A stretch of 64,000 nucleotides of DNA from an uncultured bacterium (GTDB taxonomy: Bacteria > Patescibacteriota > JABMPQ01 > CAVVCK01), in assembly GCA_963746775.1 (NCBI GenBank), contig CAVVCK010000001.1:19050-83049 (forward strand). Direction: 5' to 3'. The translations under genes were made by a program, and so were the position numbers. The notes beneath the pieces were generated by a model that saw only the letters and a program-made list of their open reading frames with translations, was not told the DNA's origin and did no database searches. Numbering within the stretch: position 1 is the stretch's first letter; each line of letters opens with the position of its first letter. Below, piece after piece: positions 38,741 to 48,691 of the stretch.

Positions 38741-38755
38741 AAAATATCTAAAAAT

Positions 38756-38780
38756 GATTTATTTACCTGGCTTTAGTCAG
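38756..38780. repeat. REP-A element copy (GATTTATTTACCTGGCTTTAGTCAG; palindromic core ctgRctttagYcag)
   Basis: Matches the copies at 39386-39489, 40868-40926 and 48143-48165, the last in opposite orientation. Confidence 0.65.
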
Positions 38781-39307
38781 CTCTTACCAGTTTTAAACTT
38801 AGAGCTATCTTCTAAATCTAATTTTATAACATTTTTAACTATTTCCACAGTAAATTCAAGTCCATGTTCTCTAACAGCTTGTGAAAAACTAGAATATGGC
38901 GATTTATTTAATTCGCTAAAATCCTGCACTTCTTTATATTTTAGCAAATTACCAATAATATATCCCCAAACATTATAGAACATTCTTTCTTCTAAAATAA
39001 TTTTTGTCCAATAATTATCCCATATCCTACGATTTATGCCATCTATTTTGTTTAACACAAATGAACTTCCACCGTTTATTACCCTGATAATATCTTTTAA
39101 CCTATTTTTATCTTCTAAATAAAATAATAAGTGATAATGATCATAAGCTATACTATAAGCATAGATAGAAATCTTAAATTTATTTTTTATATTATTTAAC
39201 TGCTTTAAAATAATATTTTTCTTTTTATTAGTATTAAAATATTTCTCATGATTAAAAGTTGGTGTGGTTAAAAAATAGTAAGAATTATTTAGAATAACTC
39301 GTGGCAT
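38777..39307 (-). mobile_element. IS200/IS605-like Y1 (HuH) transposase, REP-associated tyrosine transposase type (RAYT-1)
   Basis: HuH motif DHYHLLFYL. Downstream region with Tyr-containing WDNYWTKII. 176 aa. Flanked on both sides by REP-A palindromes. Confidence 0.6.
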
Positions 39308-39320
39308 ACAATTTTAATAT

Positions 39321-39489
39321 CCGGCTAAAGCCGGGGAAATTACTTTTTTAAAAATTCATTAAAGCGATTTGTTTTATATAAAAATGATTTATTCACCTGA
39401 CTTTAGTCAGCCTATTCTTAAAAGTGATTTATTTACCTAACTTTAGTCAGCCTATTCTTAAAAGTGATTTATTTACCTGACTTTAGTCA
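39321..39489. repeat. REP-A cluster: hairpin ccggctaaagccgg plus 3 tandem ~39-bp units
   Basis: Units at 39386-39410, 39425-39449 and 39465-39489 (gatttattYacctRactttagtcag), each followed by the identical cctattcttaaaagt. Confidence 0.7.
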
Positions 39490-39590
39490 GTTATTTTATT
39501 ATACCAAATAACCATATACCTACACAAAATCTATTTTTCTGTTAAAATATTAGCATAATTAGTATTAATTAGTATATTAGCATCGACCCA

Positions 39591-40811
39591 ATGAAAATCC
39601 TCCTAGCCAATAAATTCTACTATCTAAAAGGCGGAGCCGAACGCCACTTATTTGATTTGAAAGAATTATTAGAAGAAAACGGTCACAAGACTATTCCTTT
39701 TGCTATGCAGGATAATAAAAACGTCAACTCATCTTATTCTAAATATTTGGTAAGCCCGGTTAATTTAGAAAAATCTAGCTTTTCTCTGGAAGGAATAAAA
39801 GCAGCCGGACGAATAATTTATTCTTTTGAAGCTAGATCAAAAATGGAGGATCTAATTAAGACCGAAAAACCTGATATAGCCCATATTCATAATATTTATC
39901 ATCAAATTTCGCCTTCTATTCTAACTCCGCTCAAAAAAGCAGGTATTCCTATTGTAATGACCGTCCATGATTTTAAATTGATGTGCCCTAATTATATTTT
40001 TTATACCCAAAATAGGGTTTGTGAGCGCTGCAAAAAATATAAATACTATAATTGTGTAATCCACAAATGTGTTAAAGATTCTTATGCAGCCAGCAAGATT
40101 AATATGCTAGAAATGTATTATCACAGATTTTTAAAGATTTATAAAAATAATATTGATTTATATATTACACCCAGCCAATTTGTCAAAGACAAACTTATAG
40201 AATTTGGCTTTAATAGAAATAAAATTGAAGTTTTACCTCATTTTATAAAACAAGAACAAATTATTGAACAAAACAATTATTCAGAAAATTATATCTTATA
40301 TTTTGGCCGCCTTTCTAAAGAAAAAGGACCAGTAGTTTTATTAAAAGCAATGCAAAAGGTTAAAAATATAAAATTAAAATTAGCTGGCACAGGACCGCAA
40401 GAAAAAGAATTAAAGGATTATGTACAAAAAAATAATATGGATAATGTTGAATTCTTGGGATATTTAAAAGGTGAAAAGCTTAAAGAAGCTATTCTAAATT
40501 CCCTTTTTGTAATTATGCCCTCGGTATTTTATGAGACTTTTGGTCTAACTGTGCTAGAATCTTATACCTATGGAAAATCTGTTATAGCCTCTAATATAGG
40601 TGCTCTGCCAGAATTAGTACAAGAAGGTAAAACTGGCCTATTGTTTGAAAGTGGTAACAGTGATAACTTAGCTCAAAAAATTAATAAAATGCTTCAAAGT
40701 AGAGAAAAAATAGAAAATATGGGAAGTATGGGAAAAGAATTTAGTAAGAAATTTAATAGAGATGATTATTATGAGAAAATAAAGGAAATTTATAAGAGAA
40801 TAACCGGCTAA
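39591..40811 (+). CDS. GT4-family glycosyltransferase
   Basis: C-terminal ETFGLTVLESYTYGKSVIASNIGALPE GT-B motif. Flanked by REP-A clusters. Confidence 0.75.
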   Translation: MKILLANKFYYLKGGAERHLFDLKELLEENGHKTIPFAMQDNKNVNSSYSKYLVSPVNLEKSSFSLEGIKAAGRIIYSFEARSKMEDLIKTEKPDIAHIHNIYHQISPSILTPLKKAGIPIVMTVHDFKLMCPNYIFYTQNRVCERCKKYKYYNCVIHKCVKDSYAASKINMLEMYYHRFLKIYKNNIDLYITPSQFVKDKLIEFGFNRNKIEVLPHFIKQEQIIEQNNYSENYILYFGRLSKEKGPVVLLKAMQKVKNIKLKLAGTGPQEKELKDYVQKNNMDNVEFLGYLKGEKLKEAILNSLFVIMPSVFYETFGLTVLESYTYGKSVIASNIGALPELVQEGKTGLLFESGNSDNLAQKINKMLQSREKIENMGSMGKEFSKKFNRDDYYEKIKEIYKRITG

Positions 40812-40926
40812 AGCCGGGAAAATAACTTTTTAAAACTTACTAATACAACTTACTTAATATAAAAAGTAATTTATTTACCTGGCTTTAGTCAGATTAAAAA
40901 TGTTTTATTGGCCTGGCTTTAGCCAG
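40804..40926. repeat. REP-A cluster (ccggctaaagccgg; aatttatttacctggctttagtcag; cctggctttagccagc)
   Basis: Three palindromic copies of the same family, immediately 3' of the glycosyltransferase. Confidence 0.65.
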
Positions 40927-40951
40927 CTTTTTATTTATTATTTCTAAAAAA

Positions 40952-40976
40952 ATAGCCCCATCAGGGCTATTTTATA
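40952..40976 (+). terminator. Rho-independent terminator
   Basis: Stem atagccc/gggctat with loop catca, followed by a T-rich tail. Confidence 0.55.
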
Positions 40977-41063
40977 TTGAAACTAATTATATTAATTGGG
41001 AAGCCCACTTTCAAACGCTAATCCAGGACGGATCAACTAGGTGGGCAATTTTTCGGTAGGTTA

Positions 41064-41810
41064 TTACTCACGAGAGATGGGCGGGGTGTGCGGGGTCCAG
41101 CAGATGGAATAGCAGCCCCGATATTCCCTCTCATCGAAGCGTGGTTGTGCCAAGTATCCCTCAATTCCGCTGGAAAGACCAGCCTCCCATTCCTCGCAAG
41201 TAGGGGTTGGAGTCTCAAAATCCCAGCAGTCACCCTCGAACAACAGGGCGACGCCAGTCACGTATTCCAGAGGGCATTCACATGTTCCCGAAAACGCGAA
41301 ACCTCTCCAACCAGGCTCACTATGAGACTCATCGTCCCAAGGAAACCCGGCCAGACGGTCCCAGTCTTCACATTGTGCCTCTGAGGAAGAATCGCAGATG
41401 GGCAAATCGCTATCGGAGTCAGTGTCGTCATCAAAGTCGAAATCAGAATCGGCGTCACCGTCCGTGTCTCCGTCTACATCACCGCCACCATCTCCATCGC
41501 TATCCAAATCAGAGTCGCTGTCGGAGTCACCATCACCATCCACTTCCATATCACTGTCCGAGTCCGTATCACCGTCAGAATCACTGCCTCCATCGCTATC
41601 CATATCTCCGTCAATATCCGAGTCGCTATCGGAGTCAACATCGCTATCGCTGTCTACGTCTCCATCGACATCGCTATCGACATCCGCATCCGCATCTGCA
41701 TCATTATTTCGTGATGCATGTCCACATGCTGCCACGACCGAAGCCGCGACAACCAACATGGTCAAAAACACTACGCCCCAAAGGGCCTTCTCTTGCTGAT
41801 GCTTTCGCAT
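41064..41810 (-). CDS. GC-rich secreted lipoprotein A: conserved leader, poly-Asp/Ser/Gly acidic repeat, C-terminal 6-Cys domain
   Basis: The probable start is the second Met (41810), with RBS gaggaggaaggg upstream. Signal peptide plus lipobox (VVAACG). Repeats (DSDVDGDVDSDSD)n. The Cys-rich C-terminal domain is paralogous to that of 43142..43894. About 53% GC by eye. Confidence 0.5.
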   Translation of the reverse strand: MRKHQQEKALWGVVFLTMLVVAASVVAACGHASRNNDADADADVDSDVDGDVDSDSDVDSDSDSDIDGDMDSDGGSDSDGDTDSDSDMEVDGDGDSDSDSDLDSDGDGGGDVDGDTDGDADSDFDFDDDTDSDSDLPICDSSSEAQCEDWDRLAGFPWDDESHSEPGWRGFAFSGTCECPLEYVTGVALLFEGDCWDFETPTPTCEEWEAGLSSGIEGYLAQPRFDEREYRGCYSICWTPHTPPISRE

Positions 41811-41944
41811 CCCTTCCTCCTCAGCCCCGGAGGGCTTCATCTATAACCTACTACGAAAAGATAAAGAGCTTTCCATAGTAATTTAAGCCTTAATTTATTA
41901 TAAAATAACGATTTAAAGCCTAAATTCCTACTTTAAGATATTAA

Positions 41945-41973
41945 ATTGTGTCAATTTATAATATATTTGTCAA
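41945..41973 (-). promoter_or_regulatory. Minus-strand sigma70-like promoter of lipoprotein A (conserved module TATTGACAAATAT)
   Basis: On the minus strand: TTGACA (41968-41973), a 17-bp spacer, then CACAAT (41945-41950). The -35 module is the same as at 44063 and 46119. Confidence 0.4.
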
Positions 41974-42015
41974 TATTTTTAAGTGCTCTATATTTTAGTT
42001 CACTACTATTATAGC

Positions 42016-42747
42016 CTAAATATCCTCATCACTATAATCCAATATAGGATAATCCTCGAAACTAGAATTTATCCATTCTCTCCCCTTTTTCCTAATCCAA
42101 GTATTAAAGCTAGAAAAATTATAAAGATTTAGTTCTTCTATATTTTTTACTTTTTTGTGTTTAATAGAGTTGTTATGTATATAGTTGAAATGCTTATAGA
42201 AATCTTCTTCATCGCGAATGCAATGGTCCCAATATTGATACCATATTTTACGTTTTGAAGTATTATTTATTTTATTTAAAATCCTGGAACTATCTTTATG
42301 TATTTTTCTAATAAATTCTACTAGTTGATATTTAGACGCGAAATTCGTTTCACTCATTTCGCTATTCCTTAATTCATCACCTCTAGGATTAGCAAATTGA
42401 CTGGCCTGCCCGCCGGAGAGGCGGGAAGGAAATTTGCGTTCTGCAGCTGACGCGAAATTCACTCCGTTCATTTCGCTATTCCTTAAATCACTTTCTTTAG
42501 GATTAGCAAATTGAGCGAAGCGAAATTTGCGCTTTATATGAAATAATAAATGATAATGATTATCCATTATTACCCAAGCATAGATTTTTATATTAAATCT
42601 TTGAATAGATTTAATTAGTACGCTTTTTAATACTTCTTTTCTATTATCAGTATTAAAATAACAAATCTCTTCGTGCGTTCTAGAAGTTAAAAAATAAATC
42701 TGATTATCTCTATAAATATGTGGCGGACGATGTTTTTCTTTTGGCAT
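42016..42747 (-). mobile_element. IS200-like HuH tyrosine transposase (RAYT-2) carrying an in-frame insertion of its own REP-B palindromes
   Basis: HuH motif DNHYHLLFH. C-terminal WYQYWDHCIRDEEDFYKHFNYIHNN is RAYT-like. A roughly 70-aa segment (aa 72-140, nt 42328-42534) is encoded by two tandem REP-B units (FAQFANP appears twice). Possibly a pseudogene. Confidence 0.55.
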
Positions 42748-42756
42748 ATTTTTGTT

Positions 42757-42960
42757 TTTAGGATTAGCAAATTAAGTATAACAAAATTTGTGCTCTTTAA
42801 AATTACTAGGATTAGCAAATTGAGCTATTTATCCGCCAAAGAGGAGGAATGCGAAATTTGCGCTTTGTAAATTACCAGGATTAGCAAATTGACTGGAAGG
42901 AAATTTGCGCTACGTGTAGTAAGCGCGAAATTCCCCATTAGGGTCATTTCGCTAGTCCTG
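42757..42960. repeat. REP-B array: 3 units of AGGATTAGCAAATTGA...GGAAATTTGCGCT
   Basis: Palindromic arms GCAAATT/AATTTGC. Further copies at 42330-42545 (2 units), 45955-46070, and cores at 7205 and 36735. Confidence 0.65.
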
Positions 42961-43141
42961 ATTTTATTATTATATCAAAAAAACAGCCTATTTGCTGCTT
43001 ATGTGAAATGCTTAACTAATTGATGTGGAATTGTGAGCCCGCGTAAGATTGGATGTCTCTTACGCGGGTGTTCAAGAATGAACATGGGCTCCAGCTACCC
43101 GGGGTTACACTGGATTTTGGTAGGATTCGTTTTTTTGACGA

Positions 43142-43894
43142 CTAGAACCACTCGGGGTGGCAGTCACCGCCAGGGGGGAGGTCGCAGTAGGCGACGTTCA
43201 AGCACTCCCCGCCGGTCCTGCCGAGTGCCCGTTCCCCAGCGATCGCGTCCACCGACCCGTACGCAGCCTCAGCTTCGACGCAAGCGTCTCCGCTGTCTCC
43301 AGGACCCCAGTTCGTCGGAACCCAACATCCGTCGGGGAAACGGATAATGATCTGGGTTCCACCGGGAGTGACCTCGACAGCACCGGGACACCCTCCCCAA
43401 GCACCTGCTGCCCGCGGATGATCGAAAGCTTGACATTGCGAAATGTCGGCTTCCTCACACATGGGCTCGGGCTCGATCGGGGTCGTATCACCGTCGGAAT
43501 CGCCATCGCTGTCGGAGTCCGCGTCGCCGTCGCCGCCGTTGAGGTTGTTCTCGACGTTGACGTCGACATCGACGTTCACGTCGATCTCGGCACAATCCGC
43601 GACCCCGTTGCCGTCCTCGTCGGCGAAGCCCTCGTCGATCTGCCCGTCGCAGTCGTCGTCGATGTTGTTGCAAATCTCCGGAGCGCCGGGATAGACCGAG
43701 GGGTTGCTGTCGTTGCAGTCGCGGCCACCGTCGCCGACGGCCTCGAAGCTGTCCTGGTCGAGATCGTACACGTACGTCTCGATCGTATCCGGCCCGCAGC
43801 CGGTGTTGAAGGTCACCACGACCAGAAGGGTCGCGATGAGCGTTGCGGTTTCGATCAACTTGCCCCGAAGGGCCTTCTCGTGATGCTCTTGCAT
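43142..43894 (-). CDS. GC-rich secreted lipoprotein B: conserved leader, MopE-like Cys-rich metal-binding motif, acidic repeat, 6-Cys C-terminal domain
   Basis: Leader MQEHHEKALRG, compared with A's MRKHQQEKALWG. Lipobox FNTGCG. Motif RDCNDSNPSVYPGAPEICNNIDDDCDGQIDE. (DVNVDVDV)(DGDADSDSDGDSDGD) repeats. C-terminus aligns with A. About 65% GC by eye. Confidence 0.55.
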   Translation of the reverse strand: MQEHHEKALRGKLIETATLIATLLVVVTFNTGCGPDTIETYVYDLDQDSFEAVGDGGRDCNDSNPSVYPGAPEICNNIDDDCDGQIDEGFADEDGNGVADCAEIDVNVDVDVNVENNLNGGDGDADSDSDGDSDGDTTPIEPEPMCEEADISQCQAFDHPRAAGAWGGCPGAVEVTPGGTQIIIRFPDGCWVPTNWGPGDSGDACVEAEAAYGSVDAIAGERALGRTGGECLNVAYCDLPPGGDCHPEWF

Positions 43895-44044
43895 CTCTCT
43901 TCTCCTTGCGGCCCCTTGGGTCCGCCTTGTTTCCTCAAAAAAATCCTAGAAGGTACACCTTAAATTATTATTTATAATATTTTAAGGTGTAACTTCATTT
44001 AATTGCTATTTTTAAAGTACTACACTATTTTATTTTAACACTAT

Positions 44045-44073
44045 ATTATATCACTTTTTACTATATTTGTCAA
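44045..44073 (-). promoter_or_regulatory. Minus-strand consensus sigma70 promoter of lipoprotein B
   Basis: On the minus strand: TTGACA (44068-44073), a 17-bp spacer, then TATAAT (44045-44050). Confidence 0.55.
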
Positions 44074-44291
44074 TAGATTTCTTAATAATTCTTTATACCA
44101 GATACTAGCTTCTAAATACTATATTCTTGCCTTTTAGCAGCTCATATTTAGCATAAATCCCCTCCCTTATTATCTTGTTCTTGTGTTATCTTGTTATTTT
44201 GATTTAAGGAGGGTATTTTGCGTCAGCACAAGTATGATCTTTTTAATTTGATCAACTGTGCTGACGCAGGTGGGATTTTTGAGGTGGGAAA

Positions 44292-44624
44292 TTACCGGTG
44301 AGTGACAACCGTATGGTCGCCGTCAGACGCCTCCACGGCGCCCCATGTGCCGAGACCGACACCGGCACCGAGAGCTACGCTCCCGAAGCCGATGAGCAGC
44401 CCACAGGCCACTCGGTTCCGGTGACACCAGTCCGGCTGGGTTTCCACGGTCGTCGGACCTTCCACGTCGTCGGGAAGGGGGGTCGAGGTGACCTCGCCGT
44501 CCTCGTCCAGACCAAACTGAACGGGACGATCCTCGCGCACCACCTGAAAGGTGGACACGCCGCAACCGACCGAGCCGAACACCACGACCATCGCGATCGC
44601 CGCCAACTTCGTCATGTCTCTCAT
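44292..44624 (-). CDS. GC-rich small lipoprotein C
   Basis: Likely start MRDMTKL, with RBS aaggagaaggaaag upstream. Signal peptide plus lipobox FGSVGCG. About 60% GC by eye. The first Met at 44696 is less likely. Confidence 0.4.
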   Translation of the reverse strand: MRDMTKLAAIAMVVVFGSVGCGVSTFQVVREDRPVQFGLDEDGEVTSTPLPDDVEGPTTVETQPDWCHRNRVACGLLIGFGSVALGAGVGLGTWGAVEASDGDHTVVTHR

Positions 44625-44974
44625 CTTTCCTTCTCCTTCGTTCCTTGACCCTGCCATGACCCCCCTCTTTCTCAAGAGGAGGTCGGTTATGACCACCCTA
44701 AGGGGGGCCGTGTTTCCTTACCTCAAAATGTGAAATGTACTAACCTTGAAGGTATACCTAGAATTATTATATTTATAACAACTTAAGGCATAACTTCCCT
44801 TGTTCGCCGAAGCCTAATGGCGTAGGCGGATATTTTCTTCCTAATCTCTACTCCCTACTAACTACTAACTACTCACTAATAAAGAATTGGAAGCACCCGC
44901 GCATCAGTAGACATGGTAGGAACGAACCGAAGTTCGTCTATGTCATACTATAATGATGCGCGGGGCTTTTGAGG

Positions 44975-45655
44975 CTAGGGGCAGACTCGAGTATGCTGAC
45001 CACCGAAGTGAGTCAGCTCGATGCACCGTCGTCCGCGAGGACGGGGCGGCGCTTCTGCCACCTTCGTGGGGGTGGGGGGAACGGTGGGCTCCTCGGCGAC
45101 CGGGGTGGGCGGATTCGGCAGCCTTGGCGCAGGAGGCGTCTTGTTCGGGCTTGGGGCCTTCGCATGATCGTCCTCGTCGCAGTCGCCGCACTCTTCGATA
45201 CGGGTCAGAATTTCTTCCGCCCGGTCATCGATGTGTCCATTGACCGCTCCGACTCCTCTGTCGACCTCACTCGAGACGTGACCCTTGATGTCCGTCGCGA
45301 CACCGTCGGTGTGGGAATTGACGGCGTTGACCGTCTTTCCCAACTCCGACCGGAGCTGACCGAGGGTCACGCCGGTCGGCTGTCCCTTGACGGGTGCCGG
45401 CGCGGGGTTCGTCGGCGGGGGCGGCCGGTCGGGGGTCAGCGTGTTGTCCGCCTCCTGCGCTTCCGCGTCGCCACCGAACAGCCCGAGGGCCCAAGCTCCT
45501 CCGAATCCAAGCCCCACCAGAAGCACAACCATTACGATCGCCCACTTCCAGTGGGTCCTCACGTTGGCCGCGGCCCTGCGGATGCGCCCGGGCTGCGGTT
45601 CTTCGGTCACCGTCTCTGTCTCGGTCCCTTCTTCGGTCCCTGTCTCGTCGGCCAT
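44975..45655 (-). CDS. GC-rich single-pass membrane protein D with Pro-rich extracytoplasmic region (anti-sigma-factor-like topology)
   Basis: RBS aaaggagg. Acidic N-terminus. TM helix WAIVMVVLLVGLGFGGAWALGLF. Pro-rich segments PDRPPPPTNPAPAP and PPAPRLPNPPTP. Confidence 0.4.
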   Translation of the reverse strand: MADETGTEEGTETETVTEEPQPGRIRRAAANVRTHWKWAIVMVVLLVGLGFGGAWALGLFGGDAEAQEADNTLTPDRPPPPTNPAPAPVKGQPTGVTLGQLRSELGKTVNAVNSHTDGVATDIKGHVSSEVDRGVGAVNGHIDDRAEEILTRIEECGDCDEDDHAKAPSPNKTPPAPRLPNPPTPVAEEPTVPPTPTKVAEAPPRPRGRRCIELTHFGGQHTRVCP

Positions 45656-45954
45656 TTCTGGCCTCCTTTCTTTCTATCGTTTCCAACAATGAACTTCCAT
45701 CTTTCTTTCGATTGATTGAAGTCCGCGATTTTAAGAAACAATATTTATATTATTCCCTAAAAGCGAAACTCCAACCGTGTCCGCCAAAGCCTAATGGCGT
45801 AGGCGGATTTTTCATATAGCCTCAATTTATAAAATGTGCTCTCTTTAAAAAACAAATATCGTTTTATTAATCTTTCTTAATTAAGCTTTATTTGTCTTTT
45901 AATTATATGGATTTTAATGTGCAAGTTCTCACTAGCTCATTTCCTTAATCCTTA

Positions 45955-46070
45955 TCCCAGGATTAGCAAATTGACTGGCTTGCCCGCCGTCAGAGGCGGG
46001 AAGGAAATTTGCGTTTCGTACAGTAGGCGCGAAATTCGCTTCACTCATTTCGCTATTCCTTGATTCCAAA
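45955..46070. repeat. REP-B composite unit (isolated copy)
   Basis: caggattagcaaattgactggcttgcccgccgtcagaggcgggaaggaaatttgcg...gcgaaattcgcttcactcatttcgc matches the units at 42330-42545. Confidence 0.6.
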
Positions 46071-46100
46071 TTCCTAATTCCGTATTTTCAATAACACCGC

Positions 46101-46129
46101 AGTATAGCATATTGTAACATATTTGTCAA
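46101..46129 (-). promoter_or_regulatory. Minus-strand sigma70-like promoter upstream of protein D
   Basis: On the minus strand: TTGACA (46124-46129), a 17-bp spacer, then TATACT (46101-46106). Confidence 0.45.
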
Positions 46130-46430
46130 TACTATTTACCCACCTTTTTATATACTAAAAACAAGGCTTTTTTTGGGCTTAAATTAGACTACTCCAGATT
46201 AGACTTTTCTAAAAACATTGTTTTTATATAAAATATCTTTTTGCAAAATATTCGTAACAGCCTTACGGCTGTTAATCTTGATAATATTATTTTTTAGGAC
46301 TACCACTCGTAATGATGTTATTGTTTTAATAAAATTCTACATTCTAATGGATTTTTGCCCGCGCCAGAACTTATTAAGTTAAGACGCGGGCTATGAGATG
46401 CAGCGAACTAGTCGCTGCTTTGAGGTAGGA

Positions 46431-47420
46431 TCATGGAGGTGCTGCCCGGTAGGCTATCCCTATCTTGTCTTGCACCACGGCTTGACCGAGGTGCTCTGGA
46501 GTATCAGGTGGAATTTCTGAAATGTACGTATTCCACCCTGCTCCACAGACCGATAGGAAGAGATAGCGATCTCCCCTGCCGCGCAGCTCAGCGTACTGCC
46601 AGCCTCTCCATTGCCCCCGGCTTATCAACTGCCCAGGGATAAATGTCGGACTGACGTCTTCGCCAAAAACTGCTACGCAGGAGAAATACTCACTTCTCCA
46701 CCAAAGCCCCCGACCCCTACGGAAAATATTATCTACCGAGCCTTGATAGGTGGGGCTTTTCAACACCAGATTCCGTGGAGGTGGCGAACGCGGCTCAATC
46801 CGCTTGGAAGCCTGCTTTTTCGCCTTTGTCGCCTGAATCGGCCGACGCACCACCTTGCTGTGCGACAAACCCAGAGACTGAAACCACGGAGAAGGAGAAG
46901 GCACAGAAATCCAAATAATATAACCCAAACCAGCCAAAATCGATACTAGGCAAAAACCGACGAAAACACGCAATTTCCAAGGCGAGGGCTGCCAGCCCAT
47001 ATAATCAATCTCGATTTCTTTTTCAGAAGAGTCATCTTCACTATCTGAATCAGAACCAGTCTTGACGTCGCCATGGTCTTCTTCAAAATCAGCACTATTG
47101 ACACTCTCTTCCGGAGAGCTACCATCACTCTGATTTTCCGAGTTGGCTCCCCCCTTGCCATCTTGACTTTCTCCAATCCCGATTATTGACTTCCAAGTTA
47201 AATCCTCGGGGTCAATTCCGGAATATCCCGGCACTGTGCTATCCCCTCTCAGGGGACTTTCCGAACATATTCTCACAGAACGGGGAGGCTCCGGCGGCCT
47301 TAAGATATGACGAGAAGGAGGAACAAGCCCCCTTAACTCAGACATACAATATCCACAATTCGTACAAAAAGCATATTCTACCTCATGTCCACACTTCGGA
47401 CACTTTTTCATCTCACTCAT
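46431..47420 (-). CDS. Zinc-ribbon membrane protein E
   Basis: N-terminal zinc ribbon CPKCGHEVEYAFCTNCGYC. Acidic S/D/E segment. One TM helix VFVGFCLVSILAGLGYIIWISV. C-terminal domain of unknown function. About 50% GC by eye. Confidence 0.4.
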   Translation of the reverse strand: MSEMKKCPKCGHEVEYAFCTNCGYCMSELRGLVPPSRHILRPPEPPRSVRICSESPLRGDSTVPGYSGIDPEDLTWKSIIGIGESQDGKGGANSENQSDGSSPEESVNSADFEEDHGDVKTGSDSDSEDDSSEKEIEIDYMGWQPSPWKLRVFVGFCLVSILAGLGYIIWISVPSPSPWFQSLGLSHSKVVRRPIQATKAKKQASKRIEPRSPPPRNLVLKSPTYQGSVDNIFRRGRGLWWRSEYFSCVAVFGEDVSPTFIPGQLISRGQWRGWQYAELRGRGDRYLFLSVCGAGWNTYISEIPPDTPEHLGQAVVQDKIGIAYRAAPP

Positions 47421-47883
47421 GACTATCCCCTTCCCATCTCCATGGAGGTTTTGTTGTTTGCAAATTAATAAAAATACCTAATTATTCACAATAAGCTGCA
47501 AACAACTTTTTTACTCACCAATTCCAATTCTACATTATAAATTATACATTTTGCATTCATTTATCTACCTCAATTTTAAAAAAGAACGCTCTTATCCTAT
47601 GACATATAACCAAAGTCTTCGAATACATACACCTTTTACTTTAAATTAAAGAATAAAAATTTTATTCAAAAATGTTTAATAACTTTTGACTAAGGCTGTA
47701 TTTTTAAGATAAAAGAACATTATATTTAATCATAAAATAATAATATGTCAAACCCAAAAAGGTTAAAAACAGCTGTCTATTTAAAATCTTATAAAATTTA
47801 AAAAACGGTGGATAATTTATCTTTGATTCAAATTAAATTTTACATTAAAATAATAAGCACCTCTAAAAAATAACTACAAAAAA

Positions 47884-48138
47884 ATGGTACAAAATAAAAA
47901 GAAAACTAAGCAAAAAACTCAAAAAGAAATAGCTCTAGAATTAATAAAATTAATGCCCGATAGCATTGAATGGAGTGATATAAACAGTATTTTCTATGAG
48001 AAAGGAAGATTAGAGAAAACATTGAATGATGCTTTTGAAAAAGGAATTTTAACTAAAAAAGAAGCCCTGAAGCGCTATAATATGTTAGATAAGACAATAA
48101 TTACCGATTGGCTTAAAAATAAGTATGGTTTTGAATAA
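47884..48138 (+). CDS. Small hypothetical protein (84 aa)
   Basis: The ORF has native AT-rich codon usage. No recognisable domain. Confidence 0.3.
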   Translation: MVQNKKKTKQKTQKEIALELIKLMPDSIEWSDINSIFYEKGRLEKTLNDAFEKGILTKKEALKRYNMLDKTIITDWLKNKYGFE

Positions 48139-48298
48139 GAAGCTGGCTAAAGCCAGGTAAATAAAAACACTTTTTACCACGTACGAAATTTCAAGAATAC
48201 TTATAAAATTTTACATAATCCACAAAATTTCGTACGTGGTTTACTAAAAATAAAAAATGTGCTAACTTATAAATATTATACAAAAATAATCAATTTCT

Positions 48299-48691
48299 AT
48301 GGATAAGGAATTAAAAAACGAATTTGAAAAAATTAATAAACATTTCGAAAAAGTTGACAAGCGATTTGATAAAATAAATTCTCAAATTGAAATTTTAGCC
48401 GCTACTATTAATAACGATGTAGCTAAAAAAGAAGATTTAGAAAATTTAGAGAAAAAAATGGACACTGGCTTTGAAAAAATGAATAAAAAATTTAAAGATC
48501 TAGAAGAAAATGTAAACGACATATCTGCTAAAGTACAAATACAAAAAAACGTCCCCATTATTAGAAAAGTTAATGAGAAAGTAAACAAACATATTGAAAT
48601 TCATGAAAAAAGAGGAAATATAACTAAAGAAGATATAGCTGTAATTAGTAAAATTAATCCCTTCCCAAGCAAAGAAGCTCTAGCCCAATAA
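48299..48691 (+). CDS. Hypothetical coiled-coil protein (130 aa)
   Basis: Heptad-like K/E-rich sequence. The ORF is followed by a clear terminator. Confidence 0.35.
   Translation: MDKELKNEFEKINKHFEKVDKRFDKINSQIEILAATINNDVAKKEDLENLEKKMDTGFEKMNKKFKDLEENVNDISAKVQIQKNVPIIRKVNEKVNKHIEIHEKRGNITKEDIAVISKINPFPSKEALAQ

Follow-up and report, generated by a model that had tools for sequence, protein, structure and literature searches.

A 64-kb stretch of DNA from an uncultured bacterium (contig CAVVCK010000001.1; hereafter the window) very probably carries a REPtron, in which a gene for a repetitive extragenic palindromic (REP)-associated tyrosine transposase (RAYT), designated RAYT-A, is accompanied by its cognate family of repeats, REP-A, in a genome of the Parcubacteria type within the Candidate Phyla Radiation (CPR). 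The gene lies on the minus strand at 38777..39307 and encodes a protein of 176 aa which, from its motifs, hidden Markov model (HMM) scores and fold, is assigned to the class-2 (TnpA-REP-like) Y1 HuH nucleases. An earlier note on this DNA, made from the letters alone, had described an open reading frame (ORF) with a DHYHLLF motif and a downstream Tyr region at this position, and both are present, the Tyr region as GYIIGN with Y116. With the addition of 9.2 kb past the right end of the window, taken from a Logan contig, 73 kb were examined, within which RAYT-A occurs in one copy. The comparisons were made with a related 1.05-Mb contig that carries an ortholog of RAYT-A (ERZ1757541:contig_6554; L002) and with two further relatives, L117 and L118, which were reached through their isoleucyl-tRNA synthetase (IleRS; 81% identity in L117 and 87% in L118).

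Nine copies of REP-A occupy four intergenic sites between 38755 and 48168. The plus-strand copy immediately 3' of RAYT-A (38755..38780) reads TGATTTATTTAC-CTGGC-TTTA-GTCAG and is inverted relative to the minus-strand copy at 39321..39346 (core 39321-39334, stem CCGGC/GCCGG), which lies 14 nt upstream of the RAYT-A ATG. Between the divergent genes for RAYT-A and a GT4 glycosyltransferase, three plus-strand units (39385-39410, 39425-39450 and 39465-39490, with hairpins at 39397, 39437 and 39477) form a tandem array at 39379..39490; the array of three units described earlier is thus present, with a period of 40 bp and not 39 (2.8 copies, 94% matches), and the degree of matching suggests a fairly recent duplication. 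A CRISPR reading of the 40-bp array was rejected, since the repetition involves the entire unit and leaves no unique spacers. Behind the GT4 gene, 1.5 kb from RAYT-A, a REPIN-like group involving both orientations (40798..40932) places the hairpin 40804-40817 opposite two hairpins of the other orientation, 40879-40892 and 40913-40926, which belong to the 26-nt units 40867-40892 and 40901-40926. The distal copy, on the minus strand at 48134..48166 (core 48143-48156), stands directly after the stop of a small ORF (47884-48138) and is 91% complementary to 40903-40935 over 33 nt. The positions given in the earlier note for the flanking copies, for those at 40804-40926 and for the inverted copy at 48143 were correct.

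Searches of the window with the pattern CTGRCTTTAGYCAG, allowing at most one mismatch, gave 7 matches against 0.05 expected, and the 26-nt REP-A unit gave 5 against 0.00 expected. The complementary-orientation variant CCGGCTAAAGCCGG added the copies at 39321 and 40804, so that the palindromic core was recovered in both orientations, as had been claimed. A purely structural rule (5-bp stem with a TTTA or TAAA loop) applied to the whole 64 kb found eight of the nine REP-A copies and nothing else; the ninth, at 39437 (arms CTAAC/GTCAG), fails the rule because of one stem mismatch. The repeats also reach into the ends of genes: the RAYT-A stop codon TGA (38777-38779) falls in the stem of the left REP-A copy (hairpin 38767), and the stop codon TAA of the GT4 glycosyltransferase gene (40809-40811) is the loop of the copy at 40804-40817. 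Depending on its orientation, the REP-A apex offers TAA or TAG.

The structure of the repeat was derived from 23 aligned copies of five genomes, taken from the window, from the ortholog locus, from a homolog of 45% identity and from a related metagenome-assembled genome (MAG). The aligned unit is TTATTTAC-CYRRC-TTTA-GYYRG, a hairpin whose 5-bp stem carries the invariant apex CTTTAG/CTAAAG and whose T-rich foot reads TTATTTAC on one strand and GTAAATAA on the other. Pairing is maintained in 95.7% of stem cells over the 23 copies, and falls to 39% or less when the partner column is slid by 1-3 columns as a control. Double-sided changes (CG/UA, GC/AU) occur at three of the five base pairs; 23 were observed compared to 8.7 in column shuffles, and none of 500 shuffles reached 23, showing that the REP-A stems covary. 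For the inverted group at 40795-40935, folding as single-stranded DNA (ssDNA) gives one long, REPIN-like hairpin with an energy of -19.7 kcal/mol (z = -3.6).

The protein was compared with its relatives by a full HMMER search of 1.84 billion representatives, which returned 428 clusters (50% identity) at E <= 1e-3; a conservation alignment and a profile were built from 45 of the 428. H57 and H59 of DHYHLLF, W96, and Y116 and N120 of the downstream GYIIGN motif are invariant across this alignment, so that the HuH / W / Y---N set, which is defining for class-2 TnpA-REP-like proteins (PMC6006769), is complete in RAYT-A. The residue that follows the motif Asn is Leu instead of Pro, as it is in 10 of the 45 relatives. 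RAYT-A scores 38 bits with the Pfam model Y1_Tnp (PF01797; gathering cut-off 23, E = 2e-9), its best NCBIfam family is REP_Tyr_transpos (NF047646, 60.3 bits), and the IS200 model gives 23.5 bits against a cut-off of 55. All 45 members of the clade match the REP_Tyr_transpos model at E <= 0.001. Although RAYT-A alone found no match in the PDB by phmmer, so that the 45-member profile was needed, the top match of this profile was E. coli TnpA-REP (4ER8, 3.9e-15), with the HuH and YIxxNPxKH motifs coinciding in the alignment, whereas the IS200, IS608 and ISDra2 transposases followed at 3e-6 to 3e-5. The AlphaFold (AF2) model of RAYT-A has a predicted local distance difference test (pLDDT) score of 94.5, and 4ER8 was also its top Foldseek match (template modelling (TM) scores 0.68/0.72, root-mean-square deviation (rmsd) 2.4 A over 148 columns), compared to the insertion sequence (IS) transposases at a query-normalised TM of about 0.5, a target-normalised TM of 0.57-0.69 and an rmsd of 4-15 A. 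Because the HMM scores, the Y---N set and the preference of both profile and predicted fold for 4ER8 agree, RAYT-A is, as judged from sequence and model, a RAYT and not an IS200 TnpA, in line with what the earlier note had favoured.

The same arrangement is found at the ortholog locus. The L002 ortholog is 67% identical to RAYT-A and lies in the same gene neighbourhood, with genes for radical SAM, GT4, MOFRL, IleRS and RecO proteins on one side and a GT4 gene and GC-rich ORFs on the other. In L002, as in the window, a hairpin (TCCGGCTAAAGCCGGG) stands upstream of the ATG with a REP array beyond it, in this case of five REPs; the hairpin is the same as that of the 39321 copy and lies 4 nt upstream of the annotated ATG. 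Two REPs are located past the stop codon of the ortholog and one behind the GT4 gene. The L002 stems include CCAGC/GCTGG, a double compensatory change with respect to CTGGC/GCCAG. The RAYT/REP organisation that had been proposed for the window, with inverted REPs on both sides of the gene and an array upstream, is therefore shared with the 67% ortholog. The number and the sites of the copies differ between the two genomes, a turnover that counts in favour of a REPtron; at the L002 place equivalent to 48143, for example, there is no REP-A copy.

The two other relatives have no RAYT-A ortholog in this slot. In L118, the slot between the GT4 gene and the radical SAM gene is occupied by a RAYT pseudogene (L118:1290-1960) of a different kind, 46% identical to RAYT-B, the second RAYT of the window, with an in-frame stop (TAG) and with the HuH motif changed to YYH; no REP-A was found in this slot, and the contig ends inside the GT4 gene, short of its 3' end. 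In L117 the slot is empty (L117:6464-6640) and holds a perfect double-foot palindrome, TTGTAGGGGTTCAAAATTTTGAACCCCTACAA; REP-A is absent both from this slot and from the GT4 3' end, where there is an ordinary terminator instead, and hairpins of the same general class are found in the L117 genome beside its RAYT-B ortholog. Since REP-A is present in the window and L002 and absent from the L117 and L118 slots, the repeat was seen, in these four genomes, only where RAYT-A is present. With regard to vertical inheritance, RAYT-A has one copy in the 73 kb and a syntenic ortholog, but L117 has nothing in the slot and L118 has a different, degraded RAYT there.

Scanning metagenome contigs with the clade profile yielded 80 loci, of which 68 differ in their gene DNA, and the association of gene and hairpin recurs in dozens of these distant relatives. 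Over the 68 loci, hairpins of this type (5-bp stem, loop TAAA or TTTA) number 4.80/kb in the 350 nt next to the gene and 0.077/kb elsewhere, an enrichment of about 60-fold; a test for enrichment near the gene had been proposed in the earlier note. Fifty-two different arms make up their stems, and of the 256 possible loops, the only common ones are TAAA, TTTA and the variants TTCA and TGAA. As its consensus the clade has stem-TAAA-stem-G-T-A-[G/A]-A-A, to which REP-A conforms, and because the loop-adjacent base pair is almost always C:G, the clade apex is CTAAAG. More than 1 kb from the gene, 29 hairpins were found compared to 9.5 expected under a Markov model, mostly in a few loci; therefore, distal copies exist in the relatives at low density. 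A hairpin follows the gene closely in 44 related loci (within L037-L116), and in 15 of these the RAYT frame stops at the TAA of the loop. REP loops thus supply stop codons and remodel gene ends.

Several observations weigh against the interpretation of the locus as a REPtron. The 60.3 bits of RAYT-A fall below the curated REP_Tyr_transpos cut-off of 80, so that the profile evidence foreseen in the earlier note stands for Y1_Tnp, and for REP_Tyr_transpos as the best family, but not at the level of the curated cut-off. Position 124 of RAYT-A is Tyr, while 44 of the 45 relatives, including the L002 ortholog, have His. Single REP-A hairpins are weak as ssDNA (-1.7 to -6.1 kcal/mol), and their z-scores are not significant. 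The canonical 5' GT[AG]G foot is absent, and GTA[A/G] stands instead 3' of the hairpin. Among the relatives, pairs of upstream and downstream hairpins are inverted in 12 cases and direct in 13; a strict rule that the hairpins are always inverted around the gene was not supported. Finally, all nine REP-A copies lie within 9.4 kb, and no REP-A was found in the other ~54 kb of the window, nor in the 9.2 kb past its right end.

This last point bears on the claim that REP-A is a dispersed family, which held in so far as the copies occupy four separate intergenic sites. The confinement of the nine copies to 9.4 kb, with none in the other ~63 kb, leaves dispersal in this genome unproven, and the REP-A population here is small and adjoins the gene. 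Doublets were found at 13 extragenic sites of other genomes, of which 12 are spread over 10 contigs of a related low-GC MAG, CAYHOD, and the last is in a Kuenenbacteria MAG; the CAYHOD doublets are inverted, near-identical and of the same repeat family as REP-A. From these sites it follows that the REP-A family can be dispersed in this lineage. A scan with TTATTYNCCYRRCTTTAGYYRG of the genome collection, in which the source genome is not included, gave, in addition, about 17 single matches in unrelated genomes of higher GC content, which look like chance. The MAG CAYHOD01 (contigs L009-L012, L014, L023, L027, L030, L032 and L033) is labelled 'uncultured Gammaproteobacteria' and has 26-30% GC; between its proteins and those of the window the identity is 45-66%, its REP doublet is the same as that in the Kuenenbacteria MAG, and the taxonomic label is probably wrong.

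Among the alternatives, the more serious qualification is that the REPtron is a fossil, in which RAYT-A is catalytically inactive here and the REP-A copies are decaying relics retained for host roles such as stop codons, transcript ends or regulation. The metal ligands of E. coli TnpA-REP are H59, H61, N119 and H123 (PMC3479197), and H123 is the counterpart of position 124 in RAYT-A, so that the ligand set of RAYT-A is incomplete with respect to the E. coli protein, with Tyr replacing the His that the L002 ortholog keeps. The H124Y change suggests that the copy in the window may have weakened or lost activity. The window copies of REP-A are, moreover, diverged in stem and flanks while those of the related MAG are near-identical; they are few and local, and the degraded slot of L118 and the empty slot of L117 speak of frequent loss. 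On the other hand, the RAYT-A ORF is intact and of full length with all five invariant residues kept, the 94% match of the tandem units points to duplication in the fairly recent past, the occupied sites differ from those of L002 (e.g., 48143), and a Tyr might still ligate metal. Taken together, we consider complete inactivity unlikely, although it is the alternative that survives best.

Much less probable is the possibility that the hairpins serve as plain intrinsic terminators, or as some other regulatory motif of the host, and lie beside a transposase gene by coincidence. Four copies do pass a simple scan for a hairpin followed by a T-rich tail, known REPs can terminate or stabilise mRNA (PMC3479197, PMC6006769), and the copy at 40913-40926 is well placed behind GT4 and may well end its transcript. 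However, the array at 39397-39490 lies in the divergent promoter region, where there is no transcript on that strand to terminate, and the copy at 38767 is followed on the transcribed strand by an A-rich and not a T-rich stretch. The motif occurs nowhere else in 63 kb of genes that likewise need terminators, in L117 a conventional terminator of another kind follows this GT4 gene, and a coincidence does not fit the enrichment found on both sides of RAYT genes at 68 loci.

An autonomous IS200/IS605-type IS, with the gene as an ordinary TnpA and the hairpins as its left and right subterminal ends, is less probable still: a Y1 HuH protein has hairpins on both sides, the slot is filled in some relatives and not in others, and the IS608 and ISDra2 TnpA proteins share the HuH-Y1 fold and the recognition of subterminal hairpins on ssDNA, but the Tyr motif is the class-2 Y---N and not the Y----Q of IS200 (PMC6006769), the IS200 NCBIfam score is far under its cut-off, the matches of profile and fold to IS transposases are much weaker than those to TnpA-REP, RAYT-A is present once in 73 kb with its ortholog in the same syntenic slot and with no tnpB among its neighbour genes, and hairpins are found apart from the gene (40.8 kb, 48.1 kb) as well as in tandem arrays.

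Under the preferred interpretation of RAYT-A and REP-A as a REPtron, the activity of the system can be outlined by analogy with E. coli TnpA-REP (PMC3479197). RAYT-A would bind the hairpin and its foot on ssDNA, would cleave nearby through a 5'-phosphotyrosine on Y116 with a metal held by H57/H59/N120, and would then rejoin strands, resulting in local copying or rearrangement of REPs. It is from this analogy that we infer mobility of RAYT-A and REP-A.

The E. coli REPtron (TnpA-REP, RAYT or YafM; PDB 4ER8; REP/BIME, where BIME stands for bacterial interspersed mosaic element) resembles the system in the window, where one copy of the gene was seen in 73 kb, in having a Y1 HuH protein with the HuH/W/Y---N set and the same fold, a gene between inverted cognate repeats, inverted doublets (REPIN/BIME-like) as well as clusters, and a gene position that is kept in a relative. 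In contrast, the identity of RAYT-A to 4ER8 is only ~19%, the REP-A stem has 5 bp with an invariant CTTTAG apex while E. coli REPs have long, imperfect stems, nine local copies were seen instead of hundreds of dispersed ones, and the host is a ~1-Mb CPR genome. The foot differs as well: the canonical foot in E. coli is a 5' GTAG (PMC3479197; PMC6006769), whereas here GTA[A/G]A, in REP-A itself GTAAAT or GGAAAT, is 3' of the hairpin on the strand that reads GTAG, which is the mirror of the E. coli arrangement. With regard to the subclasses of Quentin et al. 2018 (PMC6006769), the clade shares the class-2 Y---N[P] motif, HYH as in subclass 2.8, and short or atypical REPs without the canonical GT[AG]G foot as in subclasses 2.5 and 2.6. 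However, the Y-motif of the clade, GYIxGN[PL]LKH, matches no tabulated subclass motif, and a hairpin with a constant apex and four freely covarying outer pairs is absent from the description (PMC6006769). That survey was based on complete genomes, and a text search of the paper gave no mention of candidate phyla, Parcubacteria or Candidatus (PMC6006769).

We therefore advance, tentatively and as a possibility rather than as the expected outcome, that RAYT-A may represent an undescribed RAYT subclass widespread in CPR/Patescibacteria with a minimal REP. The stem of this REP would have 5 bp, with covariation unconstrained at the outer four pairs, its apex would be an invariant CTAAAG, and its foot, of the GTAGAA type, would lie on the 3' side; the REP populations would be tiny, clustered at the gene in ~1-Mb genomes and a frequent source of stop codons. 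If this is true, the mirrored foot would mean that hairpin and guide are recognised in a different geometry. With only five base pairs and a fixed apex, the repeat offers an unusually simple substrate for studying the reading of hairpins by a RAYT.

The best named matches of the IleRS of the window were all to Parcubacteria or Patescibacteria (Parcubacteria group, Patescibacteria group, Staskawicz-, Nealson- and Woesebacteria), which supports the CPR (Parcubacteria-type) placement considered in the earlier note. The taxonomy was taken from IleRS because a tblastx comparison of the Kuenenbacteria contig L013 with the window gave no genes in common. In the search with the RAYT clade profile, all named matches were likewise CPR MAGs (Buchanan-, Jackson- and Berkelbacteria, Patescibacteria group), and these proteins are annotated as 'transposase', as 'hypothetical protein' or, at JGI, as 'REP element-mobilizing transposase RayT'. 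The occurrence in CPR is thus less novel than had been suggested, since members of the clade were already annotated as transposase or RayT. Our full-text literature search found no paper describing REP/RAYT systems in CPR, and the proteins are catalogued already, while the cognate repeat and its anatomy appear to be undescribed.

Work on REP/RAYT systems has dealt almost entirely with Proteobacteria, with some on Cyanobacteria and Bacteroidetes, and the systems are thought to persist in larger genomes. A complete system in a ~1-Mb CPR genome would extend the host range to highly reduced genomes, on the basis of a conserved ortholog and of a large clade across CPR with one very small type of hairpin in common. 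As a concept, RAYT/REP systems are unchanged by this finding.

A second RAYT, RAYT-B (243 aa), is encoded on the minus strand at 42016-42747, 3 kb from RAYT-A, of which it is a paralog; it scores 86.5 bits with REP_Tyr_transpos, above the cut-off of 80. RAYT-B has long palindromic repeats of its own (AGGATTAGCAAATTGA... and GCGCTACGTGTAGTAAGCGC) at 42335-42514, 42757-42967 and 45959-46091, and two repeat copies sit in frame inside its ORF between the HuH and Tyr motifs. In-frame REP insertion at this position is a hallmark of subclass 2.4/2.8 (PMC6006769), and RAYT-B is in this respect like the proteins of subclass 2.4 and some of 2.8. The RAYT-B ortholog in L121 has 172 aa and lacks the insertion. 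Immediately downstream of this ortholog, within the island of that relative, a HepT-like/nucleotidyltransferase (MNT) toxin-antitoxin pair is encoded (L121:6574-7195); no HepT/MNT pair was found at the equivalent position of the window.

RAYT-B lies within a GC-rich island (40950-47450), in which five minus-strand ORFs (41064-41840, 43142-43894, 44292-44696, 44975-45655 and 46431-47420) have 55-70% GC, with spacers of 25-35% GC in a genome of ~29% GC. A Cu-binding_MopE motif (E = 5.8e-13) is found in one of these ORFs, and Asp-rich DSD repeats are found in two. GC-rich ORFs are located at the same place in L002 (55-65% GC) and L117 (about 50%), and since these two come from independent assemblies, the island is not a chimera. 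The composition that its genes retain looks foreign for a CPR lineage. An explanation of the GC-rich stretch by rRNA or an intron was rejected, as Rfam finds three tRNAs only, and so was a role of REP-A as the boundary of a mobile island, since L002 has the island without the far REP-A copy and L117 has it with no REP-A behind the GT4 gene. Two motifs recur in the AT-rich spacers of the island, one (...TATATTTGTCAATA...) at 41942-41980, 44042-44080 and 46098-46136 and the other (CCGAAGCCTAATGGCGTAGGCGGAT) at 44798-44835 and 45775-45812, and a 23-nt palindrome is also present (43949-43996); the spacer motifs may be common promoters or terminators of the island genes. A perfect 15-nt inverted repeat (CCACGTACGAAATTT ... 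AAATTTCGTACGTGG), with ~32 nt between its arms, spans 48177-48239; it follows directly on the distal REP-A copy and lies upstream of the ORF at 48299-48691.

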